From assembly GCA_028697455.1 (NCBI GenBank), contig JAQVEZ010000002.1:25486-89485 (forward strand): DNA of 64,000 nt, read 5' to 3'. This stretch comes from Minisyncoccota bacterium (GTDB lineage Bacteria > Patescibacteriota > Minisyncoccia > Phycocordibacterales > UBA1006). Within the stretch, counting starts at the first letter, position 1. Each line of letters starts with the position of its first letter. The translations under genes and the position numbers were made by a program. The notes beneath the pieces were generated by a model that worked only from the letters and a program-made list of their open reading frames with translations, was not told the origin of the DNA and did no database searches. Positions 13,809-63,168 of this stretch are shown in pieces.

Positions 13809-13847
13809 CTCTTCTTTTTTTATTTCTTCATATTGTATTATTCAAGC

Positions 13848-28961: not shown

Positions 28962-30155
28962 TTGGTCTCCCTTTTGGAGACCTACAAATGGCTTATCGAA
29001 ACAAATGCTCAAGACCCGTCTGGAAATGACCATACGGCGATATACCGCAATACAAAGCAAGAAAGAGTTATTGTAGCTACTCTCAGTATTTTGATTGTAC
29101 TCTTTACAATCGTTACTTTAACGAATAAATCTTCTGCGTCAGCCATAGCTGATCAATCAGCAAAGACAAACTCGCAAAAACTTGCTCTTCTCAGTTCTCC
29201 TGCCGAAGTTGATCCACGTGCTGTTGGCGGTCCTGCAGAAGCAAAAATAGATAATAAGCTTGCACTCCTTTTGCCTCAAACAACAATCAATCATAATAAT
29301 GATGTTGCTCTCAAAAATATTGAAGTGAACTCTGACGGAATTATTCTCTATACCGTACACGAAGGAGATACCCTTTCTGAAATTGCTGAATACTTCGATG
29401 TTTCCACCAACACTATTCGTTGGGAAAATAACATTAATGGAAACACCATCAAGAAGGGGCAGGAATTGAAAATCCTTCCTATCACAGGAGTTCGTCACAC
29501 AATTAAAAGTGGTGATACTCTCACTAAGATTGCAAAAGAATATGGAGTCGATCCTCTTGATATTGCTATTTACAACTATCAAGAAATCGAAACACTCTCT
29601 ACTCAAGCAGAATTAGGATCTGCCAAAAGCACAGACGTAAATGAGGCAGTAAAAAATGTCAAACTCAAGACGGGAGAAAAAATTATTATTCCAAACGGAG
29701 TAAAGAAAGCACCTGTTCAAAGTACTAGTGGGGCAAAAAGTTCAAATAGCAATACTTCGTCAAGCAGTTCTTCATCGCAAAACAACGGATTCTATGCAAG
29801 ACCCGCAAAAGGAGTTGTTACCTCTCTCATGGGTGCTCGTTGGGGACGCTATCACTATGGAATTGACTTTGGTGGAAATATTGGGGATCCTATCTATGCA
29901 ACTGCCAGTGGAACCGTAAAGCAAATAGGCTGCGGAACTGGATATGGAAAATGTCTCATCATTCAACACAGCAACGGAACCGAATCTCTCTATGCGCATA
30001 CGAGCGAAATCCTTGTAAGTTCTGGAGCAAAAGTAAAGCAAGGAGATCTTATCGCAAAAATAGGAAATACCGGAAACGTTACTGGGCCTCACCTTCACTT
30101 TGAAGTTCGAGATTCTAACTCTGGACAGAGAAAAAACATGAACTATATGAAATAA
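28962..30155 (+). CDS. LysM-domain M23 (LytM-type) peptidoglycan endopeptidase
   Basis: N-terminal TM; two LysM repeats (YTVHEGDTLSEIAEYFDV...; IKSGDTLTKIAKEYGVDPLDIAIYN); C-terminal M23 motifs HYGIDFGG...PHLHFEV. Confidence 0.8.
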   Translation: MVSLLETYKWLIETNAQDPSGNDHTAIYRNTKQERVIVATLSILIVLFTIVTLTNKSSASAIADQSAKTNSQKLALLSSPAEVDPRAVGGPAEAKIDNKLALLLPQTTINHNNDVALKNIEVNSDGIILYTVHEGDTLSEIAEYFDVSTNTIRWENNINGNTIKKGQELKILPITGVRHTIKSGDTLTKIAKEYGVDPLDIAIYNYQEIETLSTQAELGSAKSTDVNEAVKNVKLKTGEKIIIPNGVKKAPVQSTSGAKSSNSNTSSSSSSSQNNGFYARPAKGVVTSLMGARWGRYHYGIDFGGNIGDPIYATASGTVKQIGCGTGYGKCLIIQHSNGTESLYAHTSEILVSSGAKVKQGDLIAKIGNTGNVTGPHLHFEVRDSNSGQRKNMNYMK

Positions 30156-35100: not shown

Positions 35101-35653
35101 TCAAAACCCCAACACTCGCAAGGAGAAAAATTAATGTTCCTGCAAGAAAAAGAAGGTTCTTTCGCGAACGAGGTGAATGAATCTTTTTTTCTTCATCCTC
35201 AAAACGAGAACGACGAATAAGTTCAGACATTGTTGAAGGCTCACTTGATTCCATTGCCTGTGAAAGATCTGAATAGTAAGTCTGCTCAATTCCTGGAGGT
35301 GCCTGAAAATCTTCTTCAGAAACTTTTTGCGCACGAAGAATTTCTTCACGAAGTTTTGAAATAGCTTCTTCCTCGGAAGAATTTTCTAAAGGATTTTCAG
35401 TTGGAAGCTGATCCTCTTCTCGAGAAAAATCTTCTCCAAAAGAAGAGCTCCTTTCTGCCTCATTTTCTTGCACTGGAAAAACTCCTGAGCTTTTGAGAAA
35501 ATCATTCTCAATTTCTTTTTTGAGAGACTCAATATCCTGTTCAGGAGAAACCTCAGATTGAAGTGGTGACAAAGGTAAATCGTTAACATCATTTTCTTCG
35601 TCCTGAAGAGAAATACTTCGTTTCCAATTTATCTTTTTTTGATCATCATTCAT
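32162..35653 (-). CDS. Giant membrane-anchored surface protein with a Cys-rich region and peptidoglycan-binding-like C-terminal repeats
   Basis: 1163 aa; acidic N-terminal tail, TM segment LLFLAGTLIFLLASVGVL, many Cys pairs (CYNNNFPG...CIDIVGGNC...), C-terminal FDAETCQALQEFQADNGLEIADPVSCVISPETYDALNAL resembling PG_binding_1 domains. Confidence 0.5.
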   Translation of the reverse strand: MNDDQKKINWKRSISLQDEENDVNDLPLSPLQSEVSPEQDIESLKKEIENDFLKSSGVFPVQENEAERSSSFGEDFSREEDQLPTENPLENSSEEEAISKLREEILRAQKVSEEDFQAPPGIEQTYYSDLSQAMESSEPSTMSELIRRSRFEDEEKKIHSPRSRKNLLFLAGTLIFLLASVGVLSTILKNSKTQKVEIIEGQKVSSLVYADTNTGINLTGVDTARTKQAIRQVTERKHSKDSVDQIYYVEQDNVGNLRRLGIKDVFDRTGSLVPDLLYDNIENTFMHGVYTSDKNYPFLILKPLSYDRAYLGMKEWESTMIDDLSPFLDLPNDANDRSLLNPGFEDSLIKNKNVRVARFLPRSRDRKGISDFLRSIGDSFGGKQNGETEEIPHDSGISEEGEEGLLTYLGKPLRNLFDIPSVFAQTERSIFGTVTDEYGNLVFDVPVFVKESPSKGGDTGGSGQYSFMGPLGNFTLVAGGATLDNSAVYTLKEIAVPQGKTMPLDIQLELESVEPEGVVLGGGGSSQAGQCSNGQIVCYNNNFPGQVFDSSHEGEPGYYCIDIVGGNCQLGTEGNGATTGNQEIGQISYTKDICFDPISGQRLTVEQQELLGDVNNPYGFCFSSYHCYKYVCIDERTNIEVSSIREGEPGIVCRQSTQRVPYDFEGRKVCRQFTDLLSMKNINQQTLCFDADGTYIPYISSASSMQGVTCIAPQTRSNRLCITQEGGVVNPDSPDAPLYGNYKFCFEPLGGVTTTIDVNDKCSDLTTQEIQQRLAQAAFEIRFLANIGAVLGLSQSFIQTLHQTADFLEQIAYANVLQIEEARQVISFLHDLEVFLDAIDPDLDMPQEGPNGNLNFYGSLRYIIDLVKCTLGIANTLQWSTLDPIPQGISIYAGQSVAGMIPIQQALVLLGLLDPISVTGSLDLVTQDAISQLQLANALQVTGIIDPPTLELLQEIIEGGESIVGNDAIINDYFGPSGTAGGTTGGALGGSGTVDGSGVLGEGQITIVQGLGSYGTLVQNLQVILFAEGYTISQINGVFDAETCQALQEFQADNGLEIADPVSCVISPETYDALNALIREKGYLGSGFALNPQGYLEGKGILEGLFGPGVRDYLVDAAGDNLNEGDVVLLYTFLDENTILIARDEIVINEIIKRRALYNYLTQ

Positions 35654-49229: not shown

Positions 49230-49781
49230 CTAGTTTCCAAACTTTTCATTATAGAGAACAATGGATTTTTCGATTGCTTTTATCGCCTCATCTTTTCCTT
49301 TGATTGAATTGATAGTAACAATATCTCCTTTTCCCTTAAGTTCTTTATAGGTTTCAAAAAAATGAGTCCATTCCTTGAGGACATGGGGATTAAGATGCTC
49401 AAGCTCAGTTACTCCTTCCCATCGCTTGTCGTTTACGGGAACGGCGATAATTTTATAATCTGATTCGCCACTATCATTCATTTCCATAACGGCAACTGGT
49501 CGAACTTTCACCAAAACCCCAACTTCAAGGGGAAAGGTTGTTGGGACAATAACATCAAGAGCATCTCCGTCCTCCCACAAAGTTTGTGGGACAAAACCAT
49601 AATCAAAAGGATAAGGACTTGCACTATAATTAACTCGATCAAGGGCAATTAACCCTGTTTCCTTATCAATCTCGTATTTATTATAAGAACCCTTAGGAAT
49701 CTCAATAATACAGTTAAACTCATGAGGAATATTTTCTCCTCGTGATATGTCATGCCATAAATTCATAGTAAGTATTTTCAA
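49230..49781 (-). CDS. ppa: Inorganic pyrophosphatase (family I)
   Basis: IIEIPKGSYNKYEID, DGDALDVIV, YKIIAV are family-I PPase motifs; an alternative start is at ATG 49766. Confidence 0.85.
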   Translation of the reverse strand: MKILTMNLWHDISRGENIPHEFNCIIEIPKGSYNKYEIDKETGLIALDRVNYSASPYPFDYGFVPQTLWEDGDALDVIVPTTFPLEVGVLVKVRPVAVMEMNDSGESDYKIIAVPVNDKRWEGVTELEHLNPHVLKEWTHFFETYKELKGKGDIVTINSIKGKDEAIKAIEKSIVLYNEKFGN

Positions 49782-49884
49782 AAAAGGTAAATAATACTTC
49801 TTAGTATAGAAAAATAGAAACTTTTTTCAAGAGATGCTCTTTATTAATGACATATTTTAAGGGATCATGTTATACTTTAAGCGT

Positions 49885-52869
49885 ATGAAAAAATTTTTTA
49901 TCTTATTTATTTTTGTTTTTTCTTTGAGTTTATTCACCCCACAGAAAACCGAAGCCCTTTTTGATGTTGGGAGCTTAATACTCGTTGCAAAAGAATACGG
50001 AATGGATACCCTCACGACTATTATCAACTCACGTATTATGGATAAACTCGTGAGTGATACGGTTAACTGGGCAAATGGTGGTTTTGACGGAGAGCCTGGC
50101 TTCATCAACAACTGGGAAGATTATCTCAAGGGGACTGAACAAGATGTCTTTATTGGAGCTTTTAGTGTTGCCGAAAAAGCCACAAGCTCTTATATACAAA
50201 ACTTCTGTAACCTTGATTGTTCCGGAAACAGCCCTGAAAATATCCAAGCTGATTATGAAGAATGTCTTGCTGGTGGTGCCCCCGTTGAAACCTGTGATGC
50301 GTATGCTAACGCAGCAAGTGCTGATTACCAGCAATGCATGGCAAATCTCGAGCAAGGAGCGGGTACTTGTCAAATGCTTGATATCGGTGCGCAGGCGCAA
50401 AGTAATTATAACGCATGGAATTCGGGAGAACTTGATTCCTATCGGCTTGCTGCAGAGAGTATTGCCCTCATCGGAGGGCAGCGATTCAACTCCGACCCAC
50501 TCAAAGCGCTTATTGAAGGACAGGGTGAAACCCTTACTAAACTCCTTGGTTCAAAATCTGAAGTAGAGAATTTTAAAAATGACTTCTCTGTTGGGGGAAT
50601 ACGGGGGTGGATTGCTCTAGCTGACCCACACAACTTTCCACTCGGACAATCAACACTTATTGAATCTGCCCTAAGTCAAAAAACAGGAGAGAAGGTTCAA
50701 AATGTTGTAGAAGATTTGCAAACACCAAATAAATTCCTCGACAGAAAATGGTGTCTCGAACGAGATGATGACAACAACTGTACAAAAGAATTTACGGGGA
50801 CTCCAGGAGCTCTTATTGAATCAAAAATAAAATCAACAGCTGATTCTGACAGCGATCGTCTTAATGTTGCCCGAGAACTTTCCGACGTTCTGGCTCGAGC
50901 GCTTGGAAAACTCACCGATGGCTTACTCCAAGCAGGCTTCAATAAGCTTACTCAATCGGGAAGTTCTGGTGCGAGTGCACAACCCTTCCAACCAGCTCAA
51001 TTTTTTACAACAGGATATCAAAATGAATTCGATATTCTTGGTTTAGGAGATCTTTCTCCTTCTGGAAGCCTTCTTGGGGGAGGAACCGGTGGGGGGAATA
51101 CTCAAACACCGATCTTTGATCCCGAGACGGGAACCTTTACACCTCTTCGTGGAGGTGATGGATCTCTTCCTTATATTGGAGGACCCGAAGATGCAGTAAA
51201 TACAAGCTGGAACGAAGGTCCTGAGATTATTATTGATCTTCAGAGTGTTCTCGAAAACTCAATTAATCTTATCCAAGAAGAGCTCACGCTCCTCACAGAG
51301 ACTGAAAAAATCCTCAGAGATGGAAAAGATAATGTGATGAAACTTGATCGTTGTATCCCTGGTCCAAAATTTGGGTGGGAAGACAGGCTTCGAGATAATC
51401 TAAATCTTACTGGAGATAGTAACGACGAAGAATCTGCTTATGACCGACTTGGGCTCCAAGAAACTCGTCGTATGGCAAATGACAATATGGTGAATATCCC
51501 TGGGGCAAGTCAAATGAGAGGAACCGTAAATGCTCTCCTCTCTCAAAATGGGGAAAATCAATTTGAAGAAGTTTCGAATGAACGAAACCGAAAACAAACC
51601 TATCTTGCAATTCTTAAAAACATGAAATCTTCAATCCAACAAGATTTTAATAACTATAAAGGAGCTATTGATTCACATCTTGTTATCTTTGAAGAGGACT
51701 GGAATAAACTCTCTGATACCGAGAAAATCGCGCTCTTCTCTATCCCCGAACGAGATGAGAATGGTGATATCATTTATGTTCCCGTTGAGGTAGGGAGCTC
51801 GGGAACTATTGTCGTTAATGAAAACCAAGAACGTCCTCTCTATATTATGGAGAAATACTATCTCTTTAAACCAGGAGAAACTCCAGCATCTGTTTTTGCA
51901 AATAATCCTGATGCCGTCAAAAAAGCCGTCTTGAGTTATTCATGGGATCTCTGGCAAAGAAAGAAGGGGGAAGAGCCAGCAAGTGGAACAACCCCAAATG
52001 GAGTAACCCAAAAATCAAACCTTCGCTATCAATATTATGCCATGTCAAAATATCTCACCACAGAGTCTGATATCCTTGATGCAGAAATGAAAAAAGATGA
52101 AGTGACTCAGAGCAATAAAACCATTATTGATCTTCTTCATGACTGTATGCAGCTAAAATTATATGCACTTGGATATTCTGATGGGAATGGTGAAAATACA
52201 GAAATGTGGAAACGCCTAGACCAGACCTTGTCCCAGGAACCTTCACGATCTCTTGGAATGCTTATTGGAGGAATGAGTGTTGAGAGGGCTGATCATGGAA
52301 GTACTGCTTACCAACTCAATGTGGACAATGCTCGTACCGATCAGCAAATAAAAAATTATCTGCTCCAAGAAAAAGCCAAACAAGAAAACAACCAACCAAG
52401 TAATTTTAAGACTTCAATAATTACTAATGGTGTTGAAGAAAGTATTCTTGGTTTTGAAGAAACAACTATTAGCTGGGAGGAAGTAGCTCATTACGGACCA
52501 CCAGGGCACAACCCCTACGGATCTCCTGATGGTGACGGAAATATAACCTTGAGTCCGAGCCAAACAAGAAAAAAATACTTTGATGATTTTTATGAAAAAG
52601 ATGAAGATCTCTGGCAACCCTATTATAAATATTCAAATGGTATTGCAGAGATAGACCCAGAAAGAGCTGTTGCAAGACTCTATCAGTTCGATTATATGAC
52701 AATGGGATGGCCACGAGGGGGAAATGGGAAAGGAACACTCTATTGTAGAGTAGTGACCTCATTCGATGCACGGGGATGGCATGGAGCTCAAAATCTCCCA
52801 AAATGCTACAAAGATTGGTACAGTACGTCAAATATTACCTATGACCTTGCGTTGATGAATATTCGATAA
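49885..52869 (+). CDS. Large secreted Cys-containing protein, hypothetical; first gene of the surface/T4SS-like gene block
   Basis: Signal peptide MKKFFILFIFVFSLSLFTPQKTEA; start at ATG 49885 with a TATACT box 8 nt upstream; about 995 aa; followed by terminator AAGCCttcgGGCTTTTTT. Confidence 0.55.
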   Translation: MKKFFILFIFVFSLSLFTPQKTEALFDVGSLILVAKEYGMDTLTTIINSRIMDKLVSDTVNWANGGFDGEPGFINNWEDYLKGTEQDVFIGAFSVAEKATSSYIQNFCNLDCSGNSPENIQADYEECLAGGAPVETCDAYANAASADYQQCMANLEQGAGTCQMLDIGAQAQSNYNAWNSGELDSYRLAAESIALIGGQRFNSDPLKALIEGQGETLTKLLGSKSEVENFKNDFSVGGIRGWIALADPHNFPLGQSTLIESALSQKTGEKVQNVVEDLQTPNKFLDRKWCLERDDDNNCTKEFTGTPGALIESKIKSTADSDSDRLNVARELSDVLARALGKLTDGLLQAGFNKLTQSGSSGASAQPFQPAQFFTTGYQNEFDILGLGDLSPSGSLLGGGTGGGNTQTPIFDPETGTFTPLRGGDGSLPYIGGPEDAVNTSWNEGPEIIIDLQSVLENSINLIQEELTLLTETEKILRDGKDNVMKLDRCIPGPKFGWEDRLRDNLNLTGDSNDEESAYDRLGLQETRRMANDNMVNIPGASQMRGTVNALLSQNGENQFEEVSNERNRKQTYLAILKNMKSSIQQDFNNYKGAIDSHLVIFEEDWNKLSDTEKIALFSIPERDENGDIIYVPVEVGSSGTIVVNENQERPLYIMEKYYLFKPGETPASVFANNPDAVKKAVLSYSWDLWQRKKGEEPASGTTPNGVTQKSNLRYQYYAMSKYLTTESDILDAEMKKDEVTQSNKTIIDLLHDCMQLKLYALGYSDGNGENTEMWKRLDQTLSQEPSRSLGMLIGGMSVERADHGSTAYQLNVDNARTDQQIKNYLLQEKAKQENNQPSNFKTSIITNGVEESILGFEETTISWEEVAHYGPPGHNPYGSPDGDGNITLSPSQTRKKYFDDFYEKDEDLWQPYYKYSNGIAEIDPERAVARLYQFDYMTMGWPRGGNGKGTLYCRVVTSFDARGWHGAQNLPKCYKDWYSTSNITYDLALMNIR

Positions 52870-52930
52870 AAGCCTTCGGGCTTTTTTCTTTTACAGAAAA
52901 GAAAAATACGATATGATTAAAGGTAGTTAT

Positions 52931-55357
52931 ATGAAATCTTTTTTAAGAAAATTCTTTCTTGGGCTTATTGTTGCACAGGCTCTTTTTCTTACTCCTTTTT
53001 CTGTTGAATTAAAAGTAAATATTCCAAAAACAGAAAATTCTCTTTTTGCTGTTCAGGAAGAAAAAAGCTCACAATCTCTTGTTGAAATATCTCCCGTATT
53101 ACATACAGCAAATGCACTTTACGGTGGTGGCTGTGATGGGGGCAGCCCCACAACATGGGGGGAATGTATTCTTTCGGGGATACTTACTTTCTATCATTAT
53201 CTGTTCTTTACAACTACTCAGATTCTCGCTGCTATTGCCGCCTATTTTATGGACGTAATTATCAAATTCTCAATCAGCAGTAGTTTTTATCGAGGAATTG
53301 GAATTATCGAAGTTGGTTGGGAGATCTTACGAGACCTTTCAAATATCATCTTTCTCTTTGCCCTTCTCTATATTGCCTTTCGTTTTGCGATTAATGGGAT
53401 AAAAGATGGTCAAGCAAAAAAGAGTCTCATCAATGTTATTGTTGCAGCCCTCGTTGTCAACTTTAGTCTTTTTATTTGTTATTTCCTCATTGACGCATCG
53501 AATCTCTTTGCGCATGTATTTTATAACAGAATAACAACCGAAGCCTCTATATACCCAACTAATAATGGAGCGGGGCAAGAAGGATTAGCGACGGTTCTTA
53601 ATGATATTAAATCCCCAGCGACAGCCTTTCTTGCAGCTATCAACCCGCAACGACTTCTCTTAACAGATGCTGATATCGCAACTAACGGAGGGATGATCAA
53701 AATCCTTTCTATGATCATGGGGATGGCAATTGTTAATGGTATTGCGATTTGGGTATTTTTGTCGGTTGCACTTCTTTTCTTAACGAGAATTTTGGGGCTT
53801 ATTATTCTCTCGTTTTTATCTCCTCTCGCTTTTTCGAGTCTCGCCATCCCAGAGATGAAGAAACAAAAATACGTTGGATTTGATGATTGGTTAAATAATT
53901 TTCTGAGAATGTCTTTTGCTGCGCCAATTTTTACCTTCTTTTTATGGGTAGCAACAAAATTTGCAAGTAATGAAGGGGTGATAGGAACAATCCAAAGAAA
54001 CTCCGGCGGGGATTGGATTTTGGATATGCTCAATGTCTTTCTGGTAATGGCGCTCATTGCAGGAATACTCGTTATGAGCAAGAAAATAACACAAGACCTT
54101 GCAGGAAACTTCTCAAAACAAATCACCGGAATGATCGGAAAAGCTGTTGCAGGAACAGCAGCTGTCGGGGCGCTTGCTGTTGCAGCTCCTGTGGCAGGGG
54201 TAGGAATGCTGGCACGTGCAGGAGCTGGAGTAACCTCTGCAACGGGGGGCCTTGCAAGGGGTGCACGAGCTCTCAACATGACTGGAGCTGCTGATAGATT
54301 ACAAAAAGCACAGGAGAAATTAAAGAGCAATAGATTTGGAACAACGGCAGCAAATGCTGGGAGGGCTCTTATGTCGACAAAACTCAATGTCACCAAAATT
54401 CCTGGCTTCAGCCAGCTTGCGGGAAAAGAGCTCACCAGCATCGTCGGTAAAGTACCTGGGGTTGGGGTTTCTGCGCGGGAGCTTGAACGAAAGGCTGTTC
54501 TTTATGGAATGAGAAATGTTCCTCTCTATAGAGACAAGGAAGGCAAGTGGAAACGTAACTTCCTTACAGGAAGACAACATCAAGAAGCTGAGCTCGCTTA
54601 CGATAAAGAAAAAGAGAAGATCCGAGGAGAACGTGGAAAATGGCAAGAAGATCTCAAAAAAGAACGAGATAAATTTGAACAAGAAAAGGTTGTCAATGCA
54701 ATGCGCGATAAGGTTAGACGAGATACAAAACTCGATCCAGAGCGAAAAGCAGAACGAGATGCTCACAATGCTGTTCTTGAAAACTCAGACCTTGTCAAAA
54801 AAGAAACCGAAGCGATGGATGCTCTCAAGGGAGAATTGGCAAACCTTACTGCTCAACTTAATGCAGCCAAAGGTTCTGGAAATGATAATCTAGCAGATAC
54901 TATTCAAATGGAGATCGATGGGGTGAAAGTTAGAAGAGCTGCTCGAGAAAAAGGAATTGAGCTTTCTGGTGGAAATGCAGAAAACATGATTACTGATAAG
55001 GTTAATGGGGGTATGAGTCGAAAAGAAGCCGTTAAGGCAATTATAGAAGAGAACAAGGATGGTTTCGGAACAACTACTACTTATCATGCTAACGGTGGAG
55101 TTGATGTGACAGCGGAGACACTCCAGGGAAGACATCAACACGAGAAAAACCTTCTTAATGAAGAAGAAAGAAATCTTATTAGGGCAGAAATTACAAATCT
55201 CAGAACTCAGGCTACCGCAGCAAGGACCGCCGGAAGAGATGATGAGGCAGATACGCTCAACAAAAAGGCTTCTCATCTTTCACAAAAAATGGAAAGTATG
55301 CTTACCGATTCTTCAAAGATTGATGAAGCAGCAAATAAAGCATCGAACAAAAAATAA
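52931..55357 (+). CDS. VirB6/TrbL/ConG-like polytopic membrane protein with a long Ala/Gly-rich coiled-coil C-terminal domain
   Basis: Signal/TM1 then about 7 further TM helices in the first 380 aa (for example ILAAIAAYFMDVII, LINVIVAALVVNFSLFICYFLI, MIKILSMIMGMAIVNGIAIWVFLSVALLFL), followed by a roughly 430-aa hydrophilic coiled-coil region. The size (about 810 aa) and topology match Gram-positive VirB6 homologues such as ConG and TcpH. Confidence 0.5.
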   Translation: MKSFLRKFFLGLIVAQALFLTPFSVELKVNIPKTENSLFAVQEEKSSQSLVEISPVLHTANALYGGGCDGGSPTTWGECILSGILTFYHYLFFTTTQILAAIAAYFMDVIIKFSISSSFYRGIGIIEVGWEILRDLSNIIFLFALLYIAFRFAINGIKDGQAKKSLINVIVAALVVNFSLFICYFLIDASNLFAHVFYNRITTEASIYPTNNGAGQEGLATVLNDIKSPATAFLAAINPQRLLLTDADIATNGGMIKILSMIMGMAIVNGIAIWVFLSVALLFLTRILGLIILSFLSPLAFSSLAIPEMKKQKYVGFDDWLNNFLRMSFAAPIFTFFLWVATKFASNEGVIGTIQRNSGGDWILDMLNVFLVMALIAGILVMSKKITQDLAGNFSKQITGMIGKAVAGTAAVGALAVAAPVAGVGMLARAGAGVTSATGGLARGARALNMTGAADRLQKAQEKLKSNRFGTTAANAGRALMSTKLNVTKIPGFSQLAGKELTSIVGKVPGVGVSARELERKAVLYGMRNVPLYRDKEGKWKRNFLTGRQHQEAELAYDKEKEKIRGERGKWQEDLKKERDKFEQEKVVNAMRDKVRRDTKLDPERKAERDAHNAVLENSDLVKKETEAMDALKGELANLTAQLNAAKGSGNDNLADTIQMEIDGVKVRRAAREKGIELSGGNAENMITDKVNGGMSRKEAVKAIIEENKDGFGTTTTYHANGGVDVTAETLQGRHQHEKNLLNEEERNLIRAEITNLRTQATAARTAGRDDEADTLNKKASHLSQKMESMLTDSSKIDEAANKASNKK

Positions 55358-55408
55358 AAAACCTTCGCGGTTTTTTATTTTTAAAAAATTGCTATACTAA
55401 AACAAGTT

Positions 55409-56260
55409 ATGGAATACGACCGATCAGAAATCGAAAAAATCATTTCCGAACTTCCCAATCATATCCGACAGGCCGTTGATGCTATTGACTGGGGAGAGAT
55501 CACCAAAGAAATGCAAGAAAAGTTCAAACTCCATCTTGATGATATTGCTGCCTTTCGTGAACAATCAATGCTTGTCATTGTGGGAAAGCTTTCTTCAGAC
55601 AGATATGCAGATGCCCTTATCTATGAAATTGGTCTAAGCAAAGAGTTCGCTCATGAACTTGTTGATTTTGCAGACAAAAGAATCTTTCAGAAATTACAAA
55701 ACAATGCCTTCGGGAGAAACCAAGAACCAGAAGAAAAAATCCCTGCGTATACCTCACAATCAACAAACGATCCTTATTCAATTATTGATATCAATGATCA
55801 AAATGAGGGGAAAAATATGCCGAGCTTTTCTCCTTCTTTTAATGCAAACCTCAAAAAAGACTTAGCTGATCAGCTTTCTTCATGGCAAGTGCAAAGTGGA
55901 AAAGAAGATATTCTTAGCTCTAATAGCGGTACCGCAGGCTCATTCAAACTTGCTCCAAGGGAAAAACCTGCTGACCCAAATGCCTATCGAGAACCTATCG
56001 AAGAATCTGACCTTCGTGGAATTCCTTCTATGGACTCCCTTGAACGGTCTTCTCTCGGTCAGGCATTACAACAGCCTGAGCAGATTTTTTCATCCCCTCT
56101 TGAAGCCCAGGAAAAACGTGAAGATGTTCCAAACCTTGAAGAAGATTTACTTTCTCAAGCCTTCATTCCTAAAAATGATATCTTAAACCTTGATGATGAA
56201 AACGATATCCTTTCAGAAGAAAATGAGGGAAGTCACCTTAAAAACCTAAAGAATATATAA
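55409..56260 (+). CDS. Acidic hypothetical protein
   Basis: 283 aa, strongly acidic C-terminal half; TATACT box immediately upstream. Confidence 0.4.
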   Translation: MEYDRSEIEKIISELPNHIRQAVDAIDWGEITKEMQEKFKLHLDDIAAFREQSMLVIVGKLSSDRYADALIYEIGLSKEFAHELVDFADKRIFQKLQNNAFGRNQEPEEKIPAYTSQSTNDPYSIIDINDQNEGKNMPSFSPSFNANLKKDLADQLSSWQVQSGKEDILSSNSGTAGSFKLAPREKPADPNAYREPIEESDLRGIPSMDSLERSSLGQALQQPEQIFSSPLEAQEKREDVPNLEEDLLSQAFIPKNDILNLDDENDILSEENEGSHLKNLKNI

Positions 56261-56268
56261 TTACCCTT

Positions 56269-56691
56269 ATGAGATTCGAAGTTCCACAATTTATTAATGT
56301 TCAAGATAAACTTTTTGGACCTTTTACCTTCCAAGAAGCTCTTTATCTTGTCGGTGGAGGAGGACTTGTCTTTGTTCTTTATAAACTCCTTCCTTTTTCT
56401 TTTGCGATATTTTTTGGTGTTCCTGTTATTGCTTTTACGCTAGCGCTCATCTTTTATAAACCAAATGGGAGACCGTTTATCAATCTTGTTGAGGCTTTTA
56501 TTCTCTATTCTTTTAGTAAAAAATTCTACCTTTGGAGACAAAAAGAAAAAGGAGAAGGTCAGATACAGGAAATCACTCAAGTACATGCTCCCGTCCTCCG
56601 TGAGGGAGAAATTCCTGAAGAAGAGGTTCACCAAAAGATATCAAACCTTGCTTGGAGTCTCGATGTGCTTGATTTTGATGAAAATAAATAG
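56269..56691 (+). CDS. PrgI/VirB3-like small two-TM membrane protein
   Basis: 140 aa; N-terminal MRFEVPQFINVQDKLFGPFTFQEALYLVGGGGLVFVLYKLLP and a second TM segment IFFGVPVIAFTLALIFY. The architecture matches the PrgI family found directly upstream of VirB4 in Gram-positive T4SS. Confidence 0.45.
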   Translation: MRFEVPQFINVQDKLFGPFTFQEALYLVGGGGLVFVLYKLLPFSFAIFFGVPVIAFTLALIFYKPNGRPFINLVEAFILYSFSKKFYLWRQKEKGEGQIQEITQVHAPVLREGEIPEEEVHQKISNLAWSLDVLDFDENK

Positions 56692-56727
56692 ATATTCCTC
56701 AAAAGATAGGATATACTTTATATAATT

Positions 56728-57390
56728 ATGGCGGACACAAAAACTTACACGGGAAATAGAACTCAGGATTTTGTTCCTATCAAAGAAATACGTGATGGTA
56801 TTGTTGTTCTTGAGGACGGAACCCTTCGTGCAATTCTTATGGCTTCGGCGGTTAATATTGCACTCAAGTCAATCGAAGAGCAGCAAGCAACGATTATGCA
56901 GTTTCAAGGATTTCTTAATTCTATCGAATTCCCGGTGCAGATATCAGTACAGTCTAGACGACAAGATATCAAACCCTATCTCATGACGCTCGAAAGACGT
57001 GTACAACAACAAGAAGAAGAGCTTTTGCGCTTACAAACAAAAGAATATATTGAATTCATACGATGGTTTACTGACTCTGTTAATATTATGTCAAAGAAAT
57101 TTTATGTTGTTATTCCTTATTCTGGAGGGCTTCTCAATGCTCAAACAACACAAAAAAAAGGTTTCTTCTCAACACTCTTTGGTGGGCAGAACAAAAAACA
57201 ACAAGAACTTGGTTCTTCTGCCTTTGAAGAGCAGCGAAGTCAGCTTGAACAAAGAGTTGCTATTGTAAAATCAGGTCTTTCTCGTTTTGGGGTACGTTCT
57301 GAACAGCTCAATACTGAACAGGCAATTGAGGTATATTATAATATTTTTAACCCTGGAGATTCTCACAGGAATATTCCCCAGCTTATCTAA
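56728..57390 (+). CDS. VirB4/TraE-family N-terminal-domain-only protein (no ATPase domain)
   Basis: DFVPIKEIRDGIVVLEDGTLRAIL...SAVNIALKSIEEQQATIMQFQGFL...PVQISVQSRRQDIKPYLMTLERRV...FYVVIPYS resembles, from recalled patterns, the conserved N-terminal module of Gram-positive VirB4 proteins (PrgJ/TcpF/ConE-type). The ORF stops after 220 aa with no Walker motifs. Confidence 0.4.
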   Translation: MADTKTYTGNRTQDFVPIKEIRDGIVVLEDGTLRAILMASAVNIALKSIEEQQATIMQFQGFLNSIEFPVQISVQSRRQDIKPYLMTLERRVQQQEEELLRLQTKEYIEFIRWFTDSVNIMSKKFYVVIPYSGGLLNAQTTQKKGFFSTLFGGQNKKQQELGSSAFEEQRSQLEQRVAIVKSGLSRFGVRSEQLNTEQAIEVYYNIFNPGDSHRNIPQLI

Positions 57391-57449
57391 ACTCGTCTTT
57401 GAGTTTTTTTGATTATGAGCAATTCCAAAAATACCTTATAATAACAAAG

Positions 57450-58493
57450 ATGATAGAACGAAAAAAAATTACATATTTTTTTCTCTTTTTTGTTCTTGTG
57501 GGAGGTTTTTTTGTTCTCTCGGAAAAAGTATCTGCACAAACTGAGGCACAGATCCAACAACTTCAAAACTTCCAACTCTATTCCGCTGATGATATTTTCA
57601 TTGATATTGTTCCAGAAGTTCCTGGTCCCAACCAAGAAGTAACTCTCCGAGCAAATAGCTATAGTTTTAACCTTAATAATTATTACATTAGTTGGTTCAA
57701 AGATGGGGTTCGCCAAAATGCAGGGTTTGGACAACGAGAGTATAAATTTACAACAGGAGAAATCGGAAAGGTCACTACAGTGGTGGCAGCTGTTGAGTTT
57801 GAGGGACAGGTTTTTCGAAAAGAAATGCGTTTTGCCCCTTCAGAGGTAAATCTTTTGTGGGAGGTTATCAACGGGTACGCCCCTCCTTTTTATAAAGGAA
57901 AGGTTCTCCCTCTCCCACAATCTGAGGTACGCGTCACTGCTATTCCACAAACCTTTCTTATCAAACCTTCAGATGCACGAAACCTTATTTATTATTGGGA
58001 TCAAAATTATGAAAGAAAAGTTGCTTCATCCGGTTTTGGGAAACAATCATTTCAATTTACGGCTGGGGTTCTTTCTCAAATGGAAAAAATTTCAGTAACC
58101 GCCAATGACAGGAGAGAGGCTTCTTTTGCAAAAGAAACCCTTGATATCCCCGTAAGTTCCTTTACTCCAAAAATTCTTTTCTATGAAATTGATGAAAACG
58201 GGCGAATCCTTACCAATAAAGCTCTCAATACCAACACACAAATCTCAGGAGATACCCTCAAGCTAGCCTTTCATCCTCTTTTTATGTCAACACCAAAGAA
58301 AAACTTTACTGATCTTTTTGTTGACTGGTCTATTAATGATATCCATCAAGCTCCTCAAAATTTCAACAAACAAAACGAGCTCTATATTAGCTCTGGTGGA
58401 GAATCTGGTGCCGTCCAGATAGGAATAAATCTCGAAGGAATTAGTAAGCTCCTTCAGAAAGGTTCTCAAAAAATTGAATTACACTTTCAATAA
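57450..58493 (+). CDS. Secreted hypothetical protein
   Basis: Signal peptide MIERKKITYFFLFFVLVGGFFVLSEKVSA; about 347 aa; terminator AAAACCAAAtactTTTGGTTTTTT follows. Confidence 0.45.
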   Translation: MIERKKITYFFLFFVLVGGFFVLSEKVSAQTEAQIQQLQNFQLYSADDIFIDIVPEVPGPNQEVTLRANSYSFNLNNYYISWFKDGVRQNAGFGQREYKFTTGEIGKVTTVVAAVEFEGQVFRKEMRFAPSEVNLLWEVINGYAPPFYKGKVLPLPQSEVRVTAIPQTFLIKPSDARNLIYYWDQNYERKVASSGFGKQSFQFTAGVLSQMEKISVTANDRREASFAKETLDIPVSSFTPKILFYEIDENGRILTNKALNTNTQISGDTLKLAFHPLFMSTPKKNFTDLFVDWSINDIHQAPQNFNKQNELYISSGGESGAVQIGINLEGISKLLQKGSQKIELHFQ

Positions 58494-58540: not shown

Positions 58541-60134
58541 AATATCGTATACTAGAAATATTACTACTATGAAAAAAGCCTATTTAACACTTTCTTTGGC
58601 AGTTATTCTTTTGGGAGGATTTTTAATGAACCCTTCTTGGGGAGAAGCACAAAATCAATGCACTGTTTCAAGTGCTACTTTTACCCAACCTGAAGATAAT
58701 TCTTTTGATAAAAAGAAGTCTACTTTAAATATCAAAACTAACGGTTGTGAATATACAAACCTTTCTGTGGTATTAAAATATTTTGCATCAGATGATTATA
58801 TATGGACCCATCAAATAAAAAACCTTCCAGGGATTTTAAAGGTTGCAAGTGATGGGGATCTCACTCTTGAAATAACTCTGGGAGAAGACCCCTGTTGGTC
58901 TGCAAACAAGGACCCTTATGGATTTCCTTGCGTTACTTTTATTGAGGTATATCAAGGAGGGAATCTCAAATTTAGTGGAAACGAAACCTACGGAAGTGAA
59001 TTTATTACCAAAGAAAAAGTAAAACTTGGTAAAAACGATCCAAATGTTCTTAAGGATTATCGTAATAAAGGTGTCCTTATTGGAGAATGTTCAAGTACTC
59101 TCTTTTGTAAAGAAGGAAGCAGCAATGTTTGGGAGTTAAGTAAGTTACTCAAAGGAACTTCACAGCAAACACAAAGCTGTATCATCAATCCCAATGATAT
59201 CCAATATGGAGAGCTTCCTTTTGAAAAAGACAGCAACGGAAACTCTTTCCCCACTATCACAAACGCCAATCTTACTCTCAATATCAATACTACAAACTGT
59301 AAGGGATTACCTATCACTCTAAGTATTTATGGTACTGAGGGGAAGGTTGATATCAAGGTCCCAGAAAAAGGCGCCGTAACTGAAATTACCAAAACTGCTG
59401 TAGGAGACGAGCTCAAATTTTCTTTCAAAACCCATGACGAAGAATGTTCTATACAAAAAAATCCTCATTGTCAGTTTGGGACAACAATCACCCAAAACGG
59501 AACTCCCATTGTAAGTACTCAAAACCTTTTAGAAACTATTGTGCCTGGAGTAGCAATTGATTGGAATTACTATCGAAACAATGGAGTCATTTTTGCTTAC
59601 TGTTCCTCAGGTCTTGGTGGTGTCTATTACTGTGAGCGTCTTGGGGCAAATGATTGGACACTTCTCAAGGTTTCAGGAAGTGCAGGGGAAGATACGCCCG
59701 AAGTATTTGAAACGATTACCCCAAAATTCGACCCCGAAAGCCCTTGTTTTGTCCAAGAGCTCAATGGGGGAAATGGGGGATATGATGAAGATTGTTACGA
59801 ACTCCTTGCTCCTGTTCCAGGATTAAAAGGAGCTACTGATCCTCTAGGAAATAATCGCTGGAGTATTAATCTTAAGAATTTTCAAATAGGAGACTATGTT
59901 AATTCACTCTTTTCTATTGCCTTAGGAATTCTAACGCTTCTTGCGGTGATTATGATTGTGATTGCTGGGGTACAGTATATGACCATTGAAAGTTTCCAGG
60001 GTAAATCTGATGCCAAAAGTAGAATTACTGGTGCTCTGACAGGGCTTCTTCTTGCCTTGAGTATTTATATTATTTTGGGAACCATTAACCCCGATCTTCT
60101 TCAGGTAAACTTTGGAAGTAACATTGAGGAGGTG
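58541..60134. repeat. 1594-bp perfect direct repeat (partner copy 60811..62404) covering the promoter, 5' UTR and first 1566 nt of the two hydrolase genes
   Basis: Both copies begin with aatatcgtatactagaaatattactactATGaaaaaagcc and are identical by eye up to ...acattgaggaggtg. They then diverge (aagttggagggg vs gcattagaggga). Confidence 0.9.
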
Positions 60135-60788
60135 AAGTTGGAGGGGATGCAACTATCACCAGAGCAATTGGCTGCGTATGGAAACGATTATAATACCGCA
60201 ATGCAACAAGGAACAGAGATTCCTCCTGATAATCAAATGTTCCAAGATGAAGGGTTTATTGCATATCTCTATCACCAACAAGGAGAAGGCGGTGCTCCTT
60301 CTATTATCTATTCCGCACAACAAGGATGGAGTAAAATTGAAAAAACTCCTTGGGCATCAAACAAATTAAAAGCTGCTGACGTCAACAAAAATATGAATAA
60401 CAACTGGCCAAGCGGCGTCAACCGAGGAAACGGGTCTCCTTCAGACTTTCTCAGGGTTTGGTGGGTGGTATGGAACCAAAGAAAGACAGAAATAAGTCTC
60501 ATACCAAAAAATGTTGCAAACATTGTTACCCAAGTTGCAAATGAAGAAAAGATTGAAGTGAACCGATTCAAAACAGTGTGTATGATAGAATCGAGTTGTA
60601 ATAATCCAAGCATCAAAAACGACCAAGGGTACAAAGGCCTTTTCCAGTTTAGTGATGACACCTTTGCTTCTCAGAAAAAACCTGGCTGTGATAGTATTTT
60701 TGATGCCTATTGTAATAGTTATGCGGGAGCACGTTATATGAAATATAATCTTTCTCGCTGGAATAAGCATAAAGCTAAGATCTTTTGA
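58569..60788 (+). CDS. Secreted membrane-anchored cell-wall hydrolase, variant 1: shared 520-aa N-terminal module plus C-terminal SLT lytic transglycosylase domain
   Basis: Signal peptide; Cys-containing N-terminal domain; hydrophobic helical hairpin LFSIALGILTLLAVIMIVIAGVQYM...ITGALTGLLLALSIYIILG; C-terminal CMIESSCNNPSIKNDQGYKGLFQFSDDTFAS carries the E-S...GLxQ lytic transglycosylase signature. Confidence 0.6.
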   Translation: MKKAYLTLSLAVILLGGFLMNPSWGEAQNQCTVSSATFTQPEDNSFDKKKSTLNIKTNGCEYTNLSVVLKYFASDDYIWTHQIKNLPGILKVASDGDLTLEITLGEDPCWSANKDPYGFPCVTFIEVYQGGNLKFSGNETYGSEFITKEKVKLGKNDPNVLKDYRNKGVLIGECSSTLFCKEGSSNVWELSKLLKGTSQQTQSCIINPNDIQYGELPFEKDSNGNSFPTITNANLTLNINTTNCKGLPITLSIYGTEGKVDIKVPEKGAVTEITKTAVGDELKFSFKTHDEECSIQKNPHCQFGTTITQNGTPIVSTQNLLETIVPGVAIDWNYYRNNGVIFAYCSSGLGGVYYCERLGANDWTLLKVSGSAGEDTPEVFETITPKFDPESPCFVQELNGGNGGYDEDCYELLAPVPGLKGATDPLGNNRWSINLKNFQIGDYVNSLFSIALGILTLLAVIMIVIAGVQYMTIESFQGKSDAKSRITGALTGLLLALSIYIILGTINPDLLQVNFGSNIEEVKLEGMQLSPEQLAAYGNDYNTAMQQGTEIPPDNQMFQDEGFIAYLYHQQGEGGAPSIIYSAQQGWSKIEKTPWASNKLKAADVNKNMNNNWPSGVNRGNGSPSDFLRVWWVVWNQRKTEISLIPKNVANIVTQVANEEKIEVNRFKTVCMIESSCNNPSIKNDQGYKGLFQFSDDTFASQKKPGCDSIFDAYCNSYAGARYMKYNLSRWNKHKAKIF

Positions 60789-60838
60789 TCTTGGTTTTTT
60801 TATTTTAAAGAATATCGTATACTAGAAATATTACTACT

Positions 60839-63076
60839 ATGAAAAAAGCCTATTTAACACTTTCTTTGGCAGTTATTCTTTTGGGAGGATTTTTAATGAA
60901 CCCTTCTTGGGGAGAAGCACAAAATCAATGCACTGTTTCAAGTGCTACTTTTACCCAACCTGAAGATAATTCTTTTGATAAAAAGAAGTCTACTTTAAAT
61001 ATCAAAACTAACGGTTGTGAATATACAAACCTTTCTGTGGTATTAAAATATTTTGCATCAGATGATTATATATGGACCCATCAAATAAAAAACCTTCCAG
61101 GGATTTTAAAGGTTGCAAGTGATGGGGATCTCACTCTTGAAATAACTCTGGGAGAAGACCCCTGTTGGTCTGCAAACAAGGACCCTTATGGATTTCCTTG
61201 CGTTACTTTTATTGAGGTATATCAAGGAGGGAATCTCAAATTTAGTGGAAACGAAACCTACGGAAGTGAATTTATTACCAAAGAAAAAGTAAAACTTGGT
61301 AAAAACGATCCAAATGTTCTTAAGGATTATCGTAATAAAGGTGTCCTTATTGGAGAATGTTCAAGTACTCTCTTTTGTAAAGAAGGAAGCAGCAATGTTT
61401 GGGAGTTAAGTAAGTTACTCAAAGGAACTTCACAGCAAACACAAAGCTGTATCATCAATCCCAATGATATCCAATATGGAGAGCTTCCTTTTGAAAAAGA
61501 CAGCAACGGAAACTCTTTCCCCACTATCACAAACGCCAATCTTACTCTCAATATCAATACTACAAACTGTAAGGGATTACCTATCACTCTAAGTATTTAT
61601 GGTACTGAGGGGAAGGTTGATATCAAGGTCCCAGAAAAAGGCGCCGTAACTGAAATTACCAAAACTGCTGTAGGAGACGAGCTCAAATTTTCTTTCAAAA
61701 CCCATGACGAAGAATGTTCTATACAAAAAAATCCTCATTGTCAGTTTGGGACAACAATCACCCAAAACGGAACTCCCATTGTAAGTACTCAAAACCTTTT
61801 AGAAACTATTGTGCCTGGAGTAGCAATTGATTGGAATTACTATCGAAACAATGGAGTCATTTTTGCTTACTGTTCCTCAGGTCTTGGTGGTGTCTATTAC
61901 TGTGAGCGTCTTGGGGCAAATGATTGGACACTTCTCAAGGTTTCAGGAAGTGCAGGGGAAGATACGCCCGAAGTATTTGAAACGATTACCCCAAAATTCG
62001 ACCCCGAAAGCCCTTGTTTTGTCCAAGAGCTCAATGGGGGAAATGGGGGATATGATGAAGATTGTTACGAACTCCTTGCTCCTGTTCCAGGATTAAAAGG
62101 AGCTACTGATCCTCTAGGAAATAATCGCTGGAGTATTAATCTTAAGAATTTTCAAATAGGAGACTATGTTAATTCACTCTTTTCTATTGCCTTAGGAATT
62201 CTAACGCTTCTTGCGGTGATTATGATTGTGATTGCTGGGGTACAGTATATGACCATTGAAAGTTTCCAGGGTAAATCTGATGCCAAAAGTAGAATTACTG
62301 GTGCTCTGACAGGGCTTCTTCTTGCCTTGAGTATTTATATTATTTTGGGAACCATTAACCCCGATCTTCTTCAGGTAAACTTTGGAAGTAACATTGAGGA
62401 GGTGGCATTAGAGGGATATGACCCCCCAACATCTCCTTATTTTTCAAGCGGCTCAACGGGGTCAAATTACAACATAAATGCAGGGTCAGTACCAACAGGA
62501 AGTGCGAGTCAGTATTTAGCAAATTCAGGGGTATACTGTCCAAAACAAGGAGGGAGGACGGTCGTAAAACAGGTTGCTGAAAGTTTCCAGGAAAAAGTTA
62601 GCTATCGCTATGGAGGACGGTTCAATGATTTAGGGCAATCTTTTCCGAGTCACTGGAAGGGTTCTGGAAAAGGATATAATAAAAACACATCATGTCAGGT
62701 AAGCTCTGGGACTCTTTGCTTAGATTGTTCGGCTTTTGTCGCCACTGTTCTCTATTGTTCTGGAATAACAGAAAAACCAGAGATTGGAACAACTACTCAA
62801 ATTTTTCAGAATTCTGAAAAAATAAACCAACTTGATAAAAAAAATGGGGTTGTTAATGGAGTACCTCTTCAGCCAGGAGACCTTATAGGAGGAAAAGGTC
62901 ATGTTGGTATTTATATAGGAAATGGAATGGTAGCAGAATCAACAAGCGATAAGGGGGGTCGGAACCTAAACAAAGCAATCAAAATTCGAGGAATGGATGG
63001 AAATTGGTTTGGTATAGGGAAAAAAGGTGGTTATGTTGTACGACTAAATAAGCTATCTGGGGTTAAACTTAATTAA
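60839..63076 (+). CDS. Secreted membrane-anchored cell-wall hydrolase, variant 2: identical N-terminal module plus C-terminal NlpC/P60-type peptidase domain
   Basis: First 522 residues identical to 58569..60788; C-terminal SSGTLCLDCSAFVATVLYCSG...LQPGDLIGGKGHVGIYIGNGMVAES has the catalytic Cys and His arrangement of NlpC/P60. Confidence 0.6.
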   Translation: MKKAYLTLSLAVILLGGFLMNPSWGEAQNQCTVSSATFTQPEDNSFDKKKSTLNIKTNGCEYTNLSVVLKYFASDDYIWTHQIKNLPGILKVASDGDLTLEITLGEDPCWSANKDPYGFPCVTFIEVYQGGNLKFSGNETYGSEFITKEKVKLGKNDPNVLKDYRNKGVLIGECSSTLFCKEGSSNVWELSKLLKGTSQQTQSCIINPNDIQYGELPFEKDSNGNSFPTITNANLTLNINTTNCKGLPITLSIYGTEGKVDIKVPEKGAVTEITKTAVGDELKFSFKTHDEECSIQKNPHCQFGTTITQNGTPIVSTQNLLETIVPGVAIDWNYYRNNGVIFAYCSSGLGGVYYCERLGANDWTLLKVSGSAGEDTPEVFETITPKFDPESPCFVQELNGGNGGYDEDCYELLAPVPGLKGATDPLGNNRWSINLKNFQIGDYVNSLFSIALGILTLLAVIMIVIAGVQYMTIESFQGKSDAKSRITGALTGLLLALSIYIILGTINPDLLQVNFGSNIEEVALEGYDPPTSPYFSSGSTGSNYNINAGSVPTGSASQYLANSGVYCPKQGGRTVVKQVAESFQEKVSYRYGGRFNDLGQSFPSHWKGSGKGYNKNTSCQVSSGTLCLDCSAFVATVLYCSGITEKPEIGTTTQIFQNSEKINQLDKKNGVVNGVPLQPGDLIGGKGHVGIYIGNGMVAESTSDKGGRNLNKAIKIRGMDGNWFGIGKKGGYVVRLNKLSGVKLN

Positions 63077-63077
63077 A

Positions 63078-63102
63078 AACAACCTTAAGGTTGTTTTTTG
63101 TT
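63078..63102 (+). terminator. Rho-independent terminator after the NlpC/P60 variant gene
   Basis: AAACAACCttaaGGTTGTTTTTTG. Confidence 0.6.
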
Positions 63103-63168
63103 TCTCTATTTCGTCATTAAAGAAAATACTTTTTTATTCCCAAAAATATCGTATACTAAAAACATCAT

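Follow-up and report, generated by a model that had tools for sequence, protein, structure and literature searches.

A perfectly repeated VirB2-like pilin module joined to two different predicted cell-wall enzymes in a type IV secretion locus of a Minisyncoccota bacterium

A 64,000-nucleotide stretch of DNA from a Minisyncoccota bacterium (contig JAQVEZ010000002.1, positions 25,486 to 89,485), referred to here at its full length as the window and numbered from its first letter, carries in a type IV secretion system (T4SS) locus two adjacent genes, A and B, which begin with an identical module and end in unrelated enzymatic domains. The module encodes a signal peptide, a large head and a hydrophobic hairpin resembling the VirB2-like pilins; the tails are predicted to be an SLT lytic transglycosylase in gene A and an NlpC/P60 peptidase in gene B. 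We propose, at a probability of roughly 0.65, that the two products are T4SS-docked wall enzymes, corresponding in fused form to the pilins and hydrolases that are separate in the Saccharibacteria, and that their tails are exchanged by recombination. Each protein would comprise a head outside the cell, made of a Sec signal peptide and two Cys-rich immunoglobulin-like (Ig-like) domains, a VirB2-like core whose two membrane helices enclose a short basic cytoplasmic loop, and a cell-wall enzyme of ~220 aa, again outside the cell. Since the two proteins do not differ in head or core, they would be expected to dock in the same T4SS or pilus structure, and we infer that this common docking would bring a cutter of glycan strands (SLT) and a cutter of stem peptides (NlpC/P60) to one spot. 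The repeat and the two genes are located as follows:

58541-60134, forward strand: repeat copy 1, containing the upstream motif, the 5' untranslated region and codons 1-522 of gene A (sequence comparison)
60811-62404, forward strand: repeat copy 2, containing the upstream motif, the 5' untranslated region and codons 1-522 of gene B (sequence comparison)
58569-60788, forward strand: gene A (739 aa, MDD3694031.1), signal peptide, two Ig-like Cys-rich domains, pilin hairpin and SLT tail
60839-63076, forward strand: gene B (745 aa, MDD3694032.1), the module of gene A with an NlpC/P60 tail

Extended from the start codons, the two copies of the repeat are identical over 1594 bp with 0 mismatches at an offset of 2270 bp, and on both sides of the repeat the identity is at the background level of 0.2-0.4 (50-bp windows). 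The length of the perfect identity and the 522 shared codons had both been read from the letters by a first-pass annotation, and both are borne out. The repeat starts 28 nt 5' of the ATG, one base ahead of a 20-nt motif. Both open reading frames (ORFs) are intact, and the two proteins bear consecutive accessions on one 155,663-bp contig of a metagenome-assembled genome (MAG) labelled 'Candidatus Pacebacteria'. A perfect 1.6-kb repeat within 64 kb cannot have arisen by chance. Inverted repeats were not found, and inversion or shufflon-type switching was rejected on this ground. The GC content of the tails (0.39-0.40) matches that of the genome (0.386), and the idea that the tails are recent foreign DNA was likewise rejected.

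The enzymatic domains of the two tails occupy the following positions:

60531-60770, forward strand: SLT lytic transglycosylase domain, gene A residues 655-734 (Pfam 28.7 bits; gathering threshold, GA, 21.3)
62717-62947, forward strand: NlpC/P60 domain, gene B residues 627-703 (Pfam 26.0 bits; GA 23)

The assignment of the tails to these two families, made at first pass and checked here with hidden Markov models (HMMs), is upheld, with PF01464 and PF00877 both scoring above their Pfam cut-offs. The sequence of tail A contains the catalytic Glu in the E-S pair of MIESS, together with the motifs GLFQF and SYAG, and gave only weak matches among PDB sequences. Tail B aligns to the NlpC/P60 structure of CwlO (E value 8e-4), and the catalytic Cys (DCSAF) and His (GHVGIY) are conserved. 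On the basis of these scores and motifs, both tails are predicted to be active on the cell wall.

The identical module is divided into a head and a pilin core:

58644-59708, forward strand: head of gene A, two beta-sandwich repeats of ~180 aa (AlphaFold strands at a predicted local distance difference test score, pLDDT, of 70-87; internal repeat E value 2e-5)
60914-61978, forward strand: head of gene B, identical to that of gene A
59793-60116, forward strand: pilin core of gene A, residues 409-516, with the CYELLAPVPG motif, a first transmembrane (TM) helix at ~445-472, the basic loop, a second TM helix at ~483-505 and the NFG junction
62063-62386, forward strand: pilin core of gene B, identical to that of gene A

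The AlphaFold model has a mean pLDDT of 57, with the head and hairpin mostly at 65-87 in 10-residue blocks, and consists of an N-terminal helix corresponding to the signal peptide, two beta-sandwich domains and a helical hairpin (440-472 / 476-505). The head measures ~400 aa, i.e., two repeats of ~180 aa and a linker, and its repeats hold 12 of the 14 Cys residues which lie N-terminal to the hairpin. An extracellular Cys-containing domain of 490 aa had been described from the letters; the Cys content stands and the size has to be revised to ~400 aa. A fold search with the full-length model returned only generic tandem Ig-like matches, none at E<=1e-3, and by this search the head appears to be without a specific known relative. 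In the core, hydropathy segments at 442-476 and 484-511 are joined by the basic loop ESFQGKSDAKSR, which is the arrangement of two hydrophobic helices and a short basic loop that marks VirB2-like pilins. Residues 441-506 of both A and B match the family T4SS_pilin (PF18895; 25.7 bits, E value 1.2e-5, GA 26.6), and precomputed PF18895 matches are present in the relatives P0007, P0008, P0013 and P0014. The signal peptide and VirB2-like hairpin recognised at first pass are supported by the AlphaFold helices and the hydropathy, with a PF18895 score just under the cut-off. With a signal peptide and two membrane helices, head and tail are both predicted to be extracellular, which is the topology of VirB2.

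The gene pair is embedded in a conserved locus, for which the following neighbours were identified:

49230-49781: ppa, flanking the locus as in relatives
49867-56260, forward strand: three large conserved upstream genes of 1000, 814 and 283 aa, matching no Pfam families
56269-56691, forward strand: PrgI family (VirB3-like) gene (PF12666, 28.2 bits against a threshold of 27; 58% identical to the PrgI of locus L001)
56728-57390, forward strand: TrsD/TraC-like gene, homologous to the N-terminal part of VirB4 (NF045975, NF041427; 67% identical to the TraC-like protein of L001)
57399-58493, forward strand: conserved locus gene of 364 aa with an N-terminal TM segment, 56% identical to the 338-aa gene preceding the pilin-hydrolase gene of L001
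63169-64000, forward strand: start of the '548-aa' locus gene, which runs past the window end (homology to L001)

In related Paceibacteria the order is ppa, three large genes, PrgI, TraC-like, a gene of ~340 aa, the pilin-hydrolase gene and the 548-aa gene. In loci L001, L003 and L011 a VirB4-like ATPase stands directly after the 548-aa gene, a position which in the present DNA would lie past the window end. The T4SS context noted at first pass is therefore supported by the PrgI and TrsD/TraC-like genes upstream and by synteny with VirB4-bearing loci. The 1000-aa (49867-52869) and 814-aa (52913-55357) genes have homologues in L001 (885 and 690 aa) and might encode VirB6-like or channel components. 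The surroundings of the locus are chromosomal (ppa, tig, clpP, cca). In the window, as in L024, the PrgI/TraC-like pair (56269-57390) and the pilin genes lie on one strand; the pair is inverted in L001 (7773-8895), L003 and L026.

The T4SS of Patescibacteria, among which the present locus belongs, are related to the conjugation systems of monoderms, mostly lack a relaxase and are often located near dnaA (Quinonero-Coronel et al. 2025, PMC12102498). They occur phylum-wide, often beside the replication origin, and in the only species in which this was tested epibiotic growth depends on them, although a 2024 perspective described their role as 'completely unknown'. According to the published survey (PMC12102498), a VirB1 hydrolase is missing from most genomes that have VirB2-like pilins. 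In the saccharibacterium S. epibionticum ML1, the only Patescibacterium with genetics, the T4SS locus includes six small bare PF18895 pilins (SEML1_0014-0019), the protein SEML1_0006, which combines two lysozyme-like domains with a Cys-proteinase domain, and the M15B-like protein SEML1_0007. The pilins are essential, and the T4SS hydrolases have been reported to be essential as well (PMC12102498). The ML1 hydrolases are encoded by separate genes, whereas, in Paceibacteria at least, pilin module and hydrolase are parts of one polypeptide, which argues that pilin and wall enzymes act as one unit. The Paceibacteria fusions would thus represent a Rosetta-stone link between the pilin and wall enzymes of the same classes as those of ML1.

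The closest functional counterparts are the VirB1-like hydrolases, i.e., TraG of pIP501, PrgK of pCF10 and CwlT of ICEBs1. Like the proteins described here, they are encoded in T4SS loci, tethered to the membrane and extracytoplasmic, and they combine an SLT or muramidase glycan cutter with a CHAP or NlpC/P60 Cys peptidase, which are the chemistries of A and B taken together; the likening of the pair to these bifunctional enzymes, made at first pass, is apt. In contrast to VirB1-like hydrolases, which hold both domains in one polypeptide on a single, simple N-terminal TM anchor, the present enzymes are split over two genes, each behind a pilin hairpin and an Ig-like head of ~400 aa, and in relatives enzymes of unrelated classes take the place of this domain. 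The VirB2-like pilin arrays of Patescibacteria (PMC12102498; Wang et al. 2023, PMC10633639) share with the window a chromosomal locus with PrgI, TrsD and VirB4 and the presence of several paralogues, and their family, PF18895, is the one that the cores of A and B match at a score just below the cut-off. However, the pilins of these arrays are small, bare and strongly divergent (mean 25%, maximum 54% identity within an array; PMC12102498), while the pilin modules in the window are 100% identical and are joined to large heads and enzymatic tails. Neither the fusion of pilins with hydrolases nor the exchange of tails was found described in the searchable literature, subscription-only papers being outside its scope. 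The domain combinations are already visible in precomputed Pfam annotations, and the proteins are kin of the VirB1-like hydrolases, the VirB2-like pilins and proteins with polymorphic C-termini and do not constitute a separate category.

A word-indexed search indicated that the precomputed C-terminal Pfam domains of relatives differ (SLT, NlpC/P60, YkuD, VanY and Peptidase_M15_4). An exhaustive phmmer search with the 522-aa module against 1.84 billion representatives, from a library clustered at 50% identity, gave 12058 matches at E<=1e-3, 1934 at E<=1e-10 and 69 at E<=1e-30. The pilin core was located in the best 154 matches with an HMM built from the family alignment. Among these, a tail of at least 100 aa follows the core in 147 (median 199 aa) and a head of at least 150 aa is present in 132. 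Conservation within the family is by far the highest in the core, which has the consensus CYELLAPIPG ... GDYVN..ALGIL..VIMIVIAGVQYMTVES..GKSDAK ... TINP.LL.VNFG, and it is also found, including its Y.LLAP.PG motif, in small pilins devoid of a tail. BLAST clustering of the tails gave the following classes:

NlpC/P60: 30 members
VanY: 25 members
SLT: 16 members
YkuD: 10 members
Peptidase_M15_4: 7 members
SLT_2: 2 members
M23: 2 members
Amidase_2: 1 member
three classes without a Pfam family: 25 (unk1), 17 (unk2) and 6 (P0038) members

There are at least 11 tail classes, which by profile-profile comparison are mutually unrelated except for VanY and M15_4. Profile searches of two of the Pfam-less classes against PDB sequences were negative. 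For unk2 (P0017, P0022, P0029), the structural model (me24326890090) has a pLDDT of 80 and a Hedgehog-N/LAS zinc-peptidase fold, and its best structure match is ShhN (E value 2e-4), followed by LdcB/VanY, VanXYc and the Ply500 endolysin. For unk1 (P0015, P0046 and others) there was no match among PDB sequences or by hhalign; its invariant H-x7-D ... H-W-H residues point to a possible LAS-type metallopeptidase. For the P0038 class, a motif that includes an E-S pair hints at a lysozyme-like enzyme. In P0143, which belongs to the SLT class, the tail is double and includes, besides SLT, a GDSL esterase, possibly a peptidoglycan O-acetyl esterase. As judged by these assignments, all tails that could be identified are predicted cell-wall-active enzymes. 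Three polypeptides (P0077, P0087 and P0123) contain 2-4 pilin cores each.

Exchange of tails at a single position is seen most directly in three orthologous loci, L001, L003 and L026, where one slot holds three different tails, namely NlpC/P60, VanY and a LAS-like domain; L001 and L026 come from the same metagenome sample. The DNA identity among these loci changes along the gene as follows:

flanking genes: about 80-90%
head, L001 against L003 and L026: 55-70%
pilin core: 78-86%
tail: unalignable
from the stop codon onward: 72-85%

Homology is lost a few codons past NFSPKEV, and genes A and B split at the same position (NFGSNIEEV). Many pairs of representatives likewise have head and core 73-99% identical and tails of different classes; the argument from representatives is confined to such individual pairs, as clustering biases any estimate of rate. 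A nearest-neighbour statistic (15% in the same tail class against 12.7% by chance) was dropped because clustering at 50% removes relatives with the same tail. The heads also appear to be exchanged, as P0003 and P0004 have the core and an SLT tail in common and differ in the first head domain.

Such a pattern also invites a different explanation, in which the family consists of polymorphic effectors or toxins: head and core would form a T4SS delivery module and the tail a payload acting on or in the wall of another cell, diversified by an arms race in the manner of the contact-dependent inhibition (CDI), Rhs, LXG and X-Tfe proteins. A conserved module with a hypervariable C-terminus of 11 or more unrelated enzyme classes fits this explanation, as do the fixed junction, the variation of the heads and the divergence of alleles between populations whose flanking DNA is ~80-90% identical, with L001 and L026 recovered from the same sample; moreover, the T4SS of the candidate phyla radiation (CPR) is essential in epibiotic growth. 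The polymorphic toxins (CdiA-CT of CDI, Rhs, LXG; Zhang et al. 2012, PMC3482391) are built in a similar way, with an N-terminal trafficking part that is conserved and, past a fixed junction, C-termini that are unrelated and recombine. However, they are accompanied by immunity genes or arrays of orphan cassettes, and both were sought here. No immunity-like ORF follows either tail, the gaps being 50 bp after gene A and 92 bp after gene B. In L001, L003 and L026 the next gene starts 2-5 bp past the stop codon, and this downstream gene is the same whatever the tail. A tblastn search of the 64-kb window with 148 tails, together with a search for the junction, revealed no orphan tail cassette or further copy of the junction, the only other matches being stand-alone VanY and LysM-M23 genes. 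Both of these checks had been set at first pass, and neither turned up the feature it was meant to find. In addition, the identified tails of the family all act on the wall and not on nucleic acids or membranes, and the carrier is a membrane-embedded pilin hairpin, so that the tail is tethered by two helices with no recognisable release site. T4SS-associated peptidoglycan hydrolases aimed at another bacterium are known as the X-Tfes of Xanthomonas and Stenotrophomonas, which are soluble, carry a C-terminal XVIPCD recognised by VirD4 and are paired with immunity proteins. In the window, by contrast, no coupling protein, XVIPCD or immunity gene was seen. All in all, we consider the toxin explanation improbable.

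For the exchangeable, T4SS-docked wall enzymes proposed here, the tail would be replaced by homologous recombination, with the pilin core providing the left arm and the conserved downstream gene the right arm, at the fixed junction NF[GS]xx[IE]EV. A second two-copy genome is informative in this respect. L026, an independent Joint Genome Institute (JGI) assembly, has two pilin-hydrolase genes (L026:8001-10208 and 11834-14047) with the 548-aa gene between them; their heads are unrelated and their tails are a LAS-like peptidase and an SLT domain, respectively. The two paralogues share a perfect core of 385 nt, from YRDGCYELLAP to NFSPKEV, with sharp edges (approximately L026:9186-9570 and 13055-13440), and its right break falls at the same codon position as in the window pair. 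As in the window, paralogues of one T4SS locus thus have an identical pilin module and end in one predicted glycosidase and one predicted peptidase, and this indicates that paralogues keep their cores identical via gene conversion or recent mosaic recombination. The origins considered for the window pair at first pass, i.e., duplication, gene conversion or cassette exchange, gain support from the clean replacement of tails and from the core-only identity in L026.

The arrangement of the tandem itself is best followed from the sequences that flank each gene:

58542-58561, forward strand: copy 1 of the 20-nt upstream motif (motif scan, 0 expected)
60812-60831, forward strand: copy 2, the perfect repeat beginning one base 5' of it
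63146-63165, forward strand: copy 3, with 2 mismatches, preceding the next conserved gene of the T4SS locus
60771-60798, forward strand: terminator-like hairpin after gene A, a 12-pair stem followed by a T run
63075-63098, forward strand: terminator-like hairpin after gene B

The 20-nt motif, ATATCGTATACTAGAAATAT, has these three matches in the 64-kb window and none elsewhere in it, compared with 0 expected, and thus stands ahead of three successive genes of the T4SS locus; it may be a putative locus-specific promoter or operator. The element named at first pass, ATATCGTATACTAGAAA, is present upstream. A scan for the sigma-70 consensus did not call the 20-nt motif as a promoter, and the label 'promoter' is interpretive. 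The hairpin after gene A and the next 12 bases form a unique junction between tail A and repeat copy 2, and the flank 5' of copy 2 differs in sequence from that 5' of copy 1. Most simply, the tandem would have arisen by unequal crossover between copies of the 20-nt motif, since the repeat begins one base before the motif and the motif also precedes the downstream gene. The partner could have been the sister chromosome or an incoming allele with the other tail, and the product would read module, tail A, terminator, hybrid upstream region, module, tail B, terminator, motif and downstream gene. The copies would be perfectly identical either because the event is very recent or because gene conversion continues. 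Direct repeats of this kind predict a RecA-mediated loop-out of the module and tail A, and the tandem should therefore be recent or selected.

Identical copies are also what a de Bruijn assembler emits by construction, and the pair might accordingly be an artefact of assembly, either a repeat-induced chimera of two strains with one gene each or a duplication introduced by the assembler or, in a milder form, a real tandem whose identity is the consensus of one graph node traversed twice. Tail polymorphism at the level of strains does exist in such populations. Exact look-ups of both proteins in a contig index and an exact search of JGI metagenomes with the 27-nt end of the shared module returned nothing, and these searches consequently provide no independent assembly of this strain. 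Against an artefact, the junction at 60789-60810 is unique, with a terminator hairpin of its own and a distinct variant of the T-rich flank, and it shares only ~13 nt with the flank of a single-copy strain, which is too short for a mis-join at the usual k-mer sizes. Furthermore, both ORFs are intact with conserved catalytic motifs, and L026 independently shows two paralogues with a perfect core and different tails. An assembly artefact is therefore very unlikely, and in the milder form a few real copy differences may have been erased by graph-based assembly.

Several observations weigh against the proposed T4SS-docked wall enzymes as a whole. The sequence is known from a single MAG contig only. 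Two long copies were found in only 2 of ~45 fetched loci (the window and L026), and a pair is not a general requirement. The T4SS_pilin score is slightly under the Pfam cut-off (25.7 against 26.6), and NF045849, a pilin-like conjugal transfer family of mycoplasma integrative and conjugative elements (ICEs), gave 25.2 bits, well under its cut-off of 40. VirB2-like pilins are small (mature ~70-130 aa) and polymerise, whereas the present proteins have 739 and 745 aa with a head of ~400 aa and a tail of ~220 aa; a filament made only of ~740-aa subunits seems sterically implausible, and a VirB2-type homopolymer with ~650 aa of globular domains per subunit could hardly be feasible. Finally, VanY and YkuD tails trim or cross-link and do not punch holes, and 'wall opening' may be too narrow a description. 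A broadened core HMM detected no bare pilins, either in the window or in the loci L001, L003, L026 and L005. As a homopolymer is implausible and bare pilins were not found, the core may act at the tip or base of a structure, may be processed or may be a mere anchor.

If the hairpin were an anchor devoid of pilin function, the pair could be ordinary membrane-anchored autolysins of growth and division which happen to adjoin T4SS genes. Bacteria carry many redundant wall hydrolases, and the pilin HMM scores are borderline. However, no part of the family is more conserved than the core, which is common to bare pilins with Y.LLAP.PG, and every long fetched locus of close relatives has the gene between the PrgI/TraC-like genes and VirB4. 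The Saccharibacteria counterparts are in the T4SS operon and are reported to be essential. The window also contains separate, stand-alone wall enzymes, which likely serve housekeeping functions:

28962-30155, forward strand: LysM-Peptidase_M23 protein
10816-11733, reverse strand: stand-alone VanY carboxypeptidase

In view of these features, we judge the autolysin explanation to have little chance of being correct.

Among T4SS-docked wall enzymes, the identity of the target wall can be proposed with less assurance. Both functional options raised at first pass, i.e., opening of the cell's own wall and attack on that of a neighbour, are live. We tentatively place the target at the cell-cell interface or in the host wall, at somewhat less than even odds, because tails and heads are rapidly exchanged among close relatives and a constant self wall needs no such variety. 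That the enzymes act on the cell's own wall only, as suggested by the membrane tether and the VirB1 precedent, is a possibility to which we give about one chance in three. A more far-reaching version, which we regard as rather unlikely, is that the Paceibacteria T4SS uses a pilin scaffold to present enzymes which degrade or remodel walls, and that it thereby breaches or harvests the wall of the host. The heads would then be host-binding modules, the tails would be swapped by recombination in these naturally competent bacteria to suit the wall chemistry of the current host, and the present genome would stack a glycan cutter and a peptide cutter on an identical scaffold. If true, this version would give the essential CPR T4SS a concrete role and provide a determinant of host range that is readable from sequence. 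The family is a fast-evolving, cassette-swapping part whose variation could be correlated with hosts. The tails are small soluble domains which could be expressed and assayed although the organisms are uncultured, and the tandem pair offers a natural experiment of one scaffold with two enzymes.

Elsewhere in the window, two further genes were recorded:

32162-35653, reverse strand: cell-wall protein of 1162 aa with two PG_binding_1 domains
25968-28562, reverse strand: ORF of 863 aa, with no Pfam match

Among the relatives, P0004 (L005:10001-12238) lies inside an ICE- or phage-like element and not in a chromosomal T4SS locus; the element encodes a serine recombinase, Rep_O, a coupling-protein-like ATPase, RadC and a methyltransferase. 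Three contigs with a pilin-hydrolase gene belong to MAGs with labels outside the CPR, namely L011 (Crocinitomicaceae), L007 (Flavobacteriales) and L019 (Gammaproteobacteria). L011 has the full order of Paceibacteria type, i.e., TraC-like, ~340 aa, pilin-hydrolase, 548 aa and VirB4. The labels of all three are probably the result of mis-binning, and their co-binning by co-abundance could be a hint of host-epibiont pairs.

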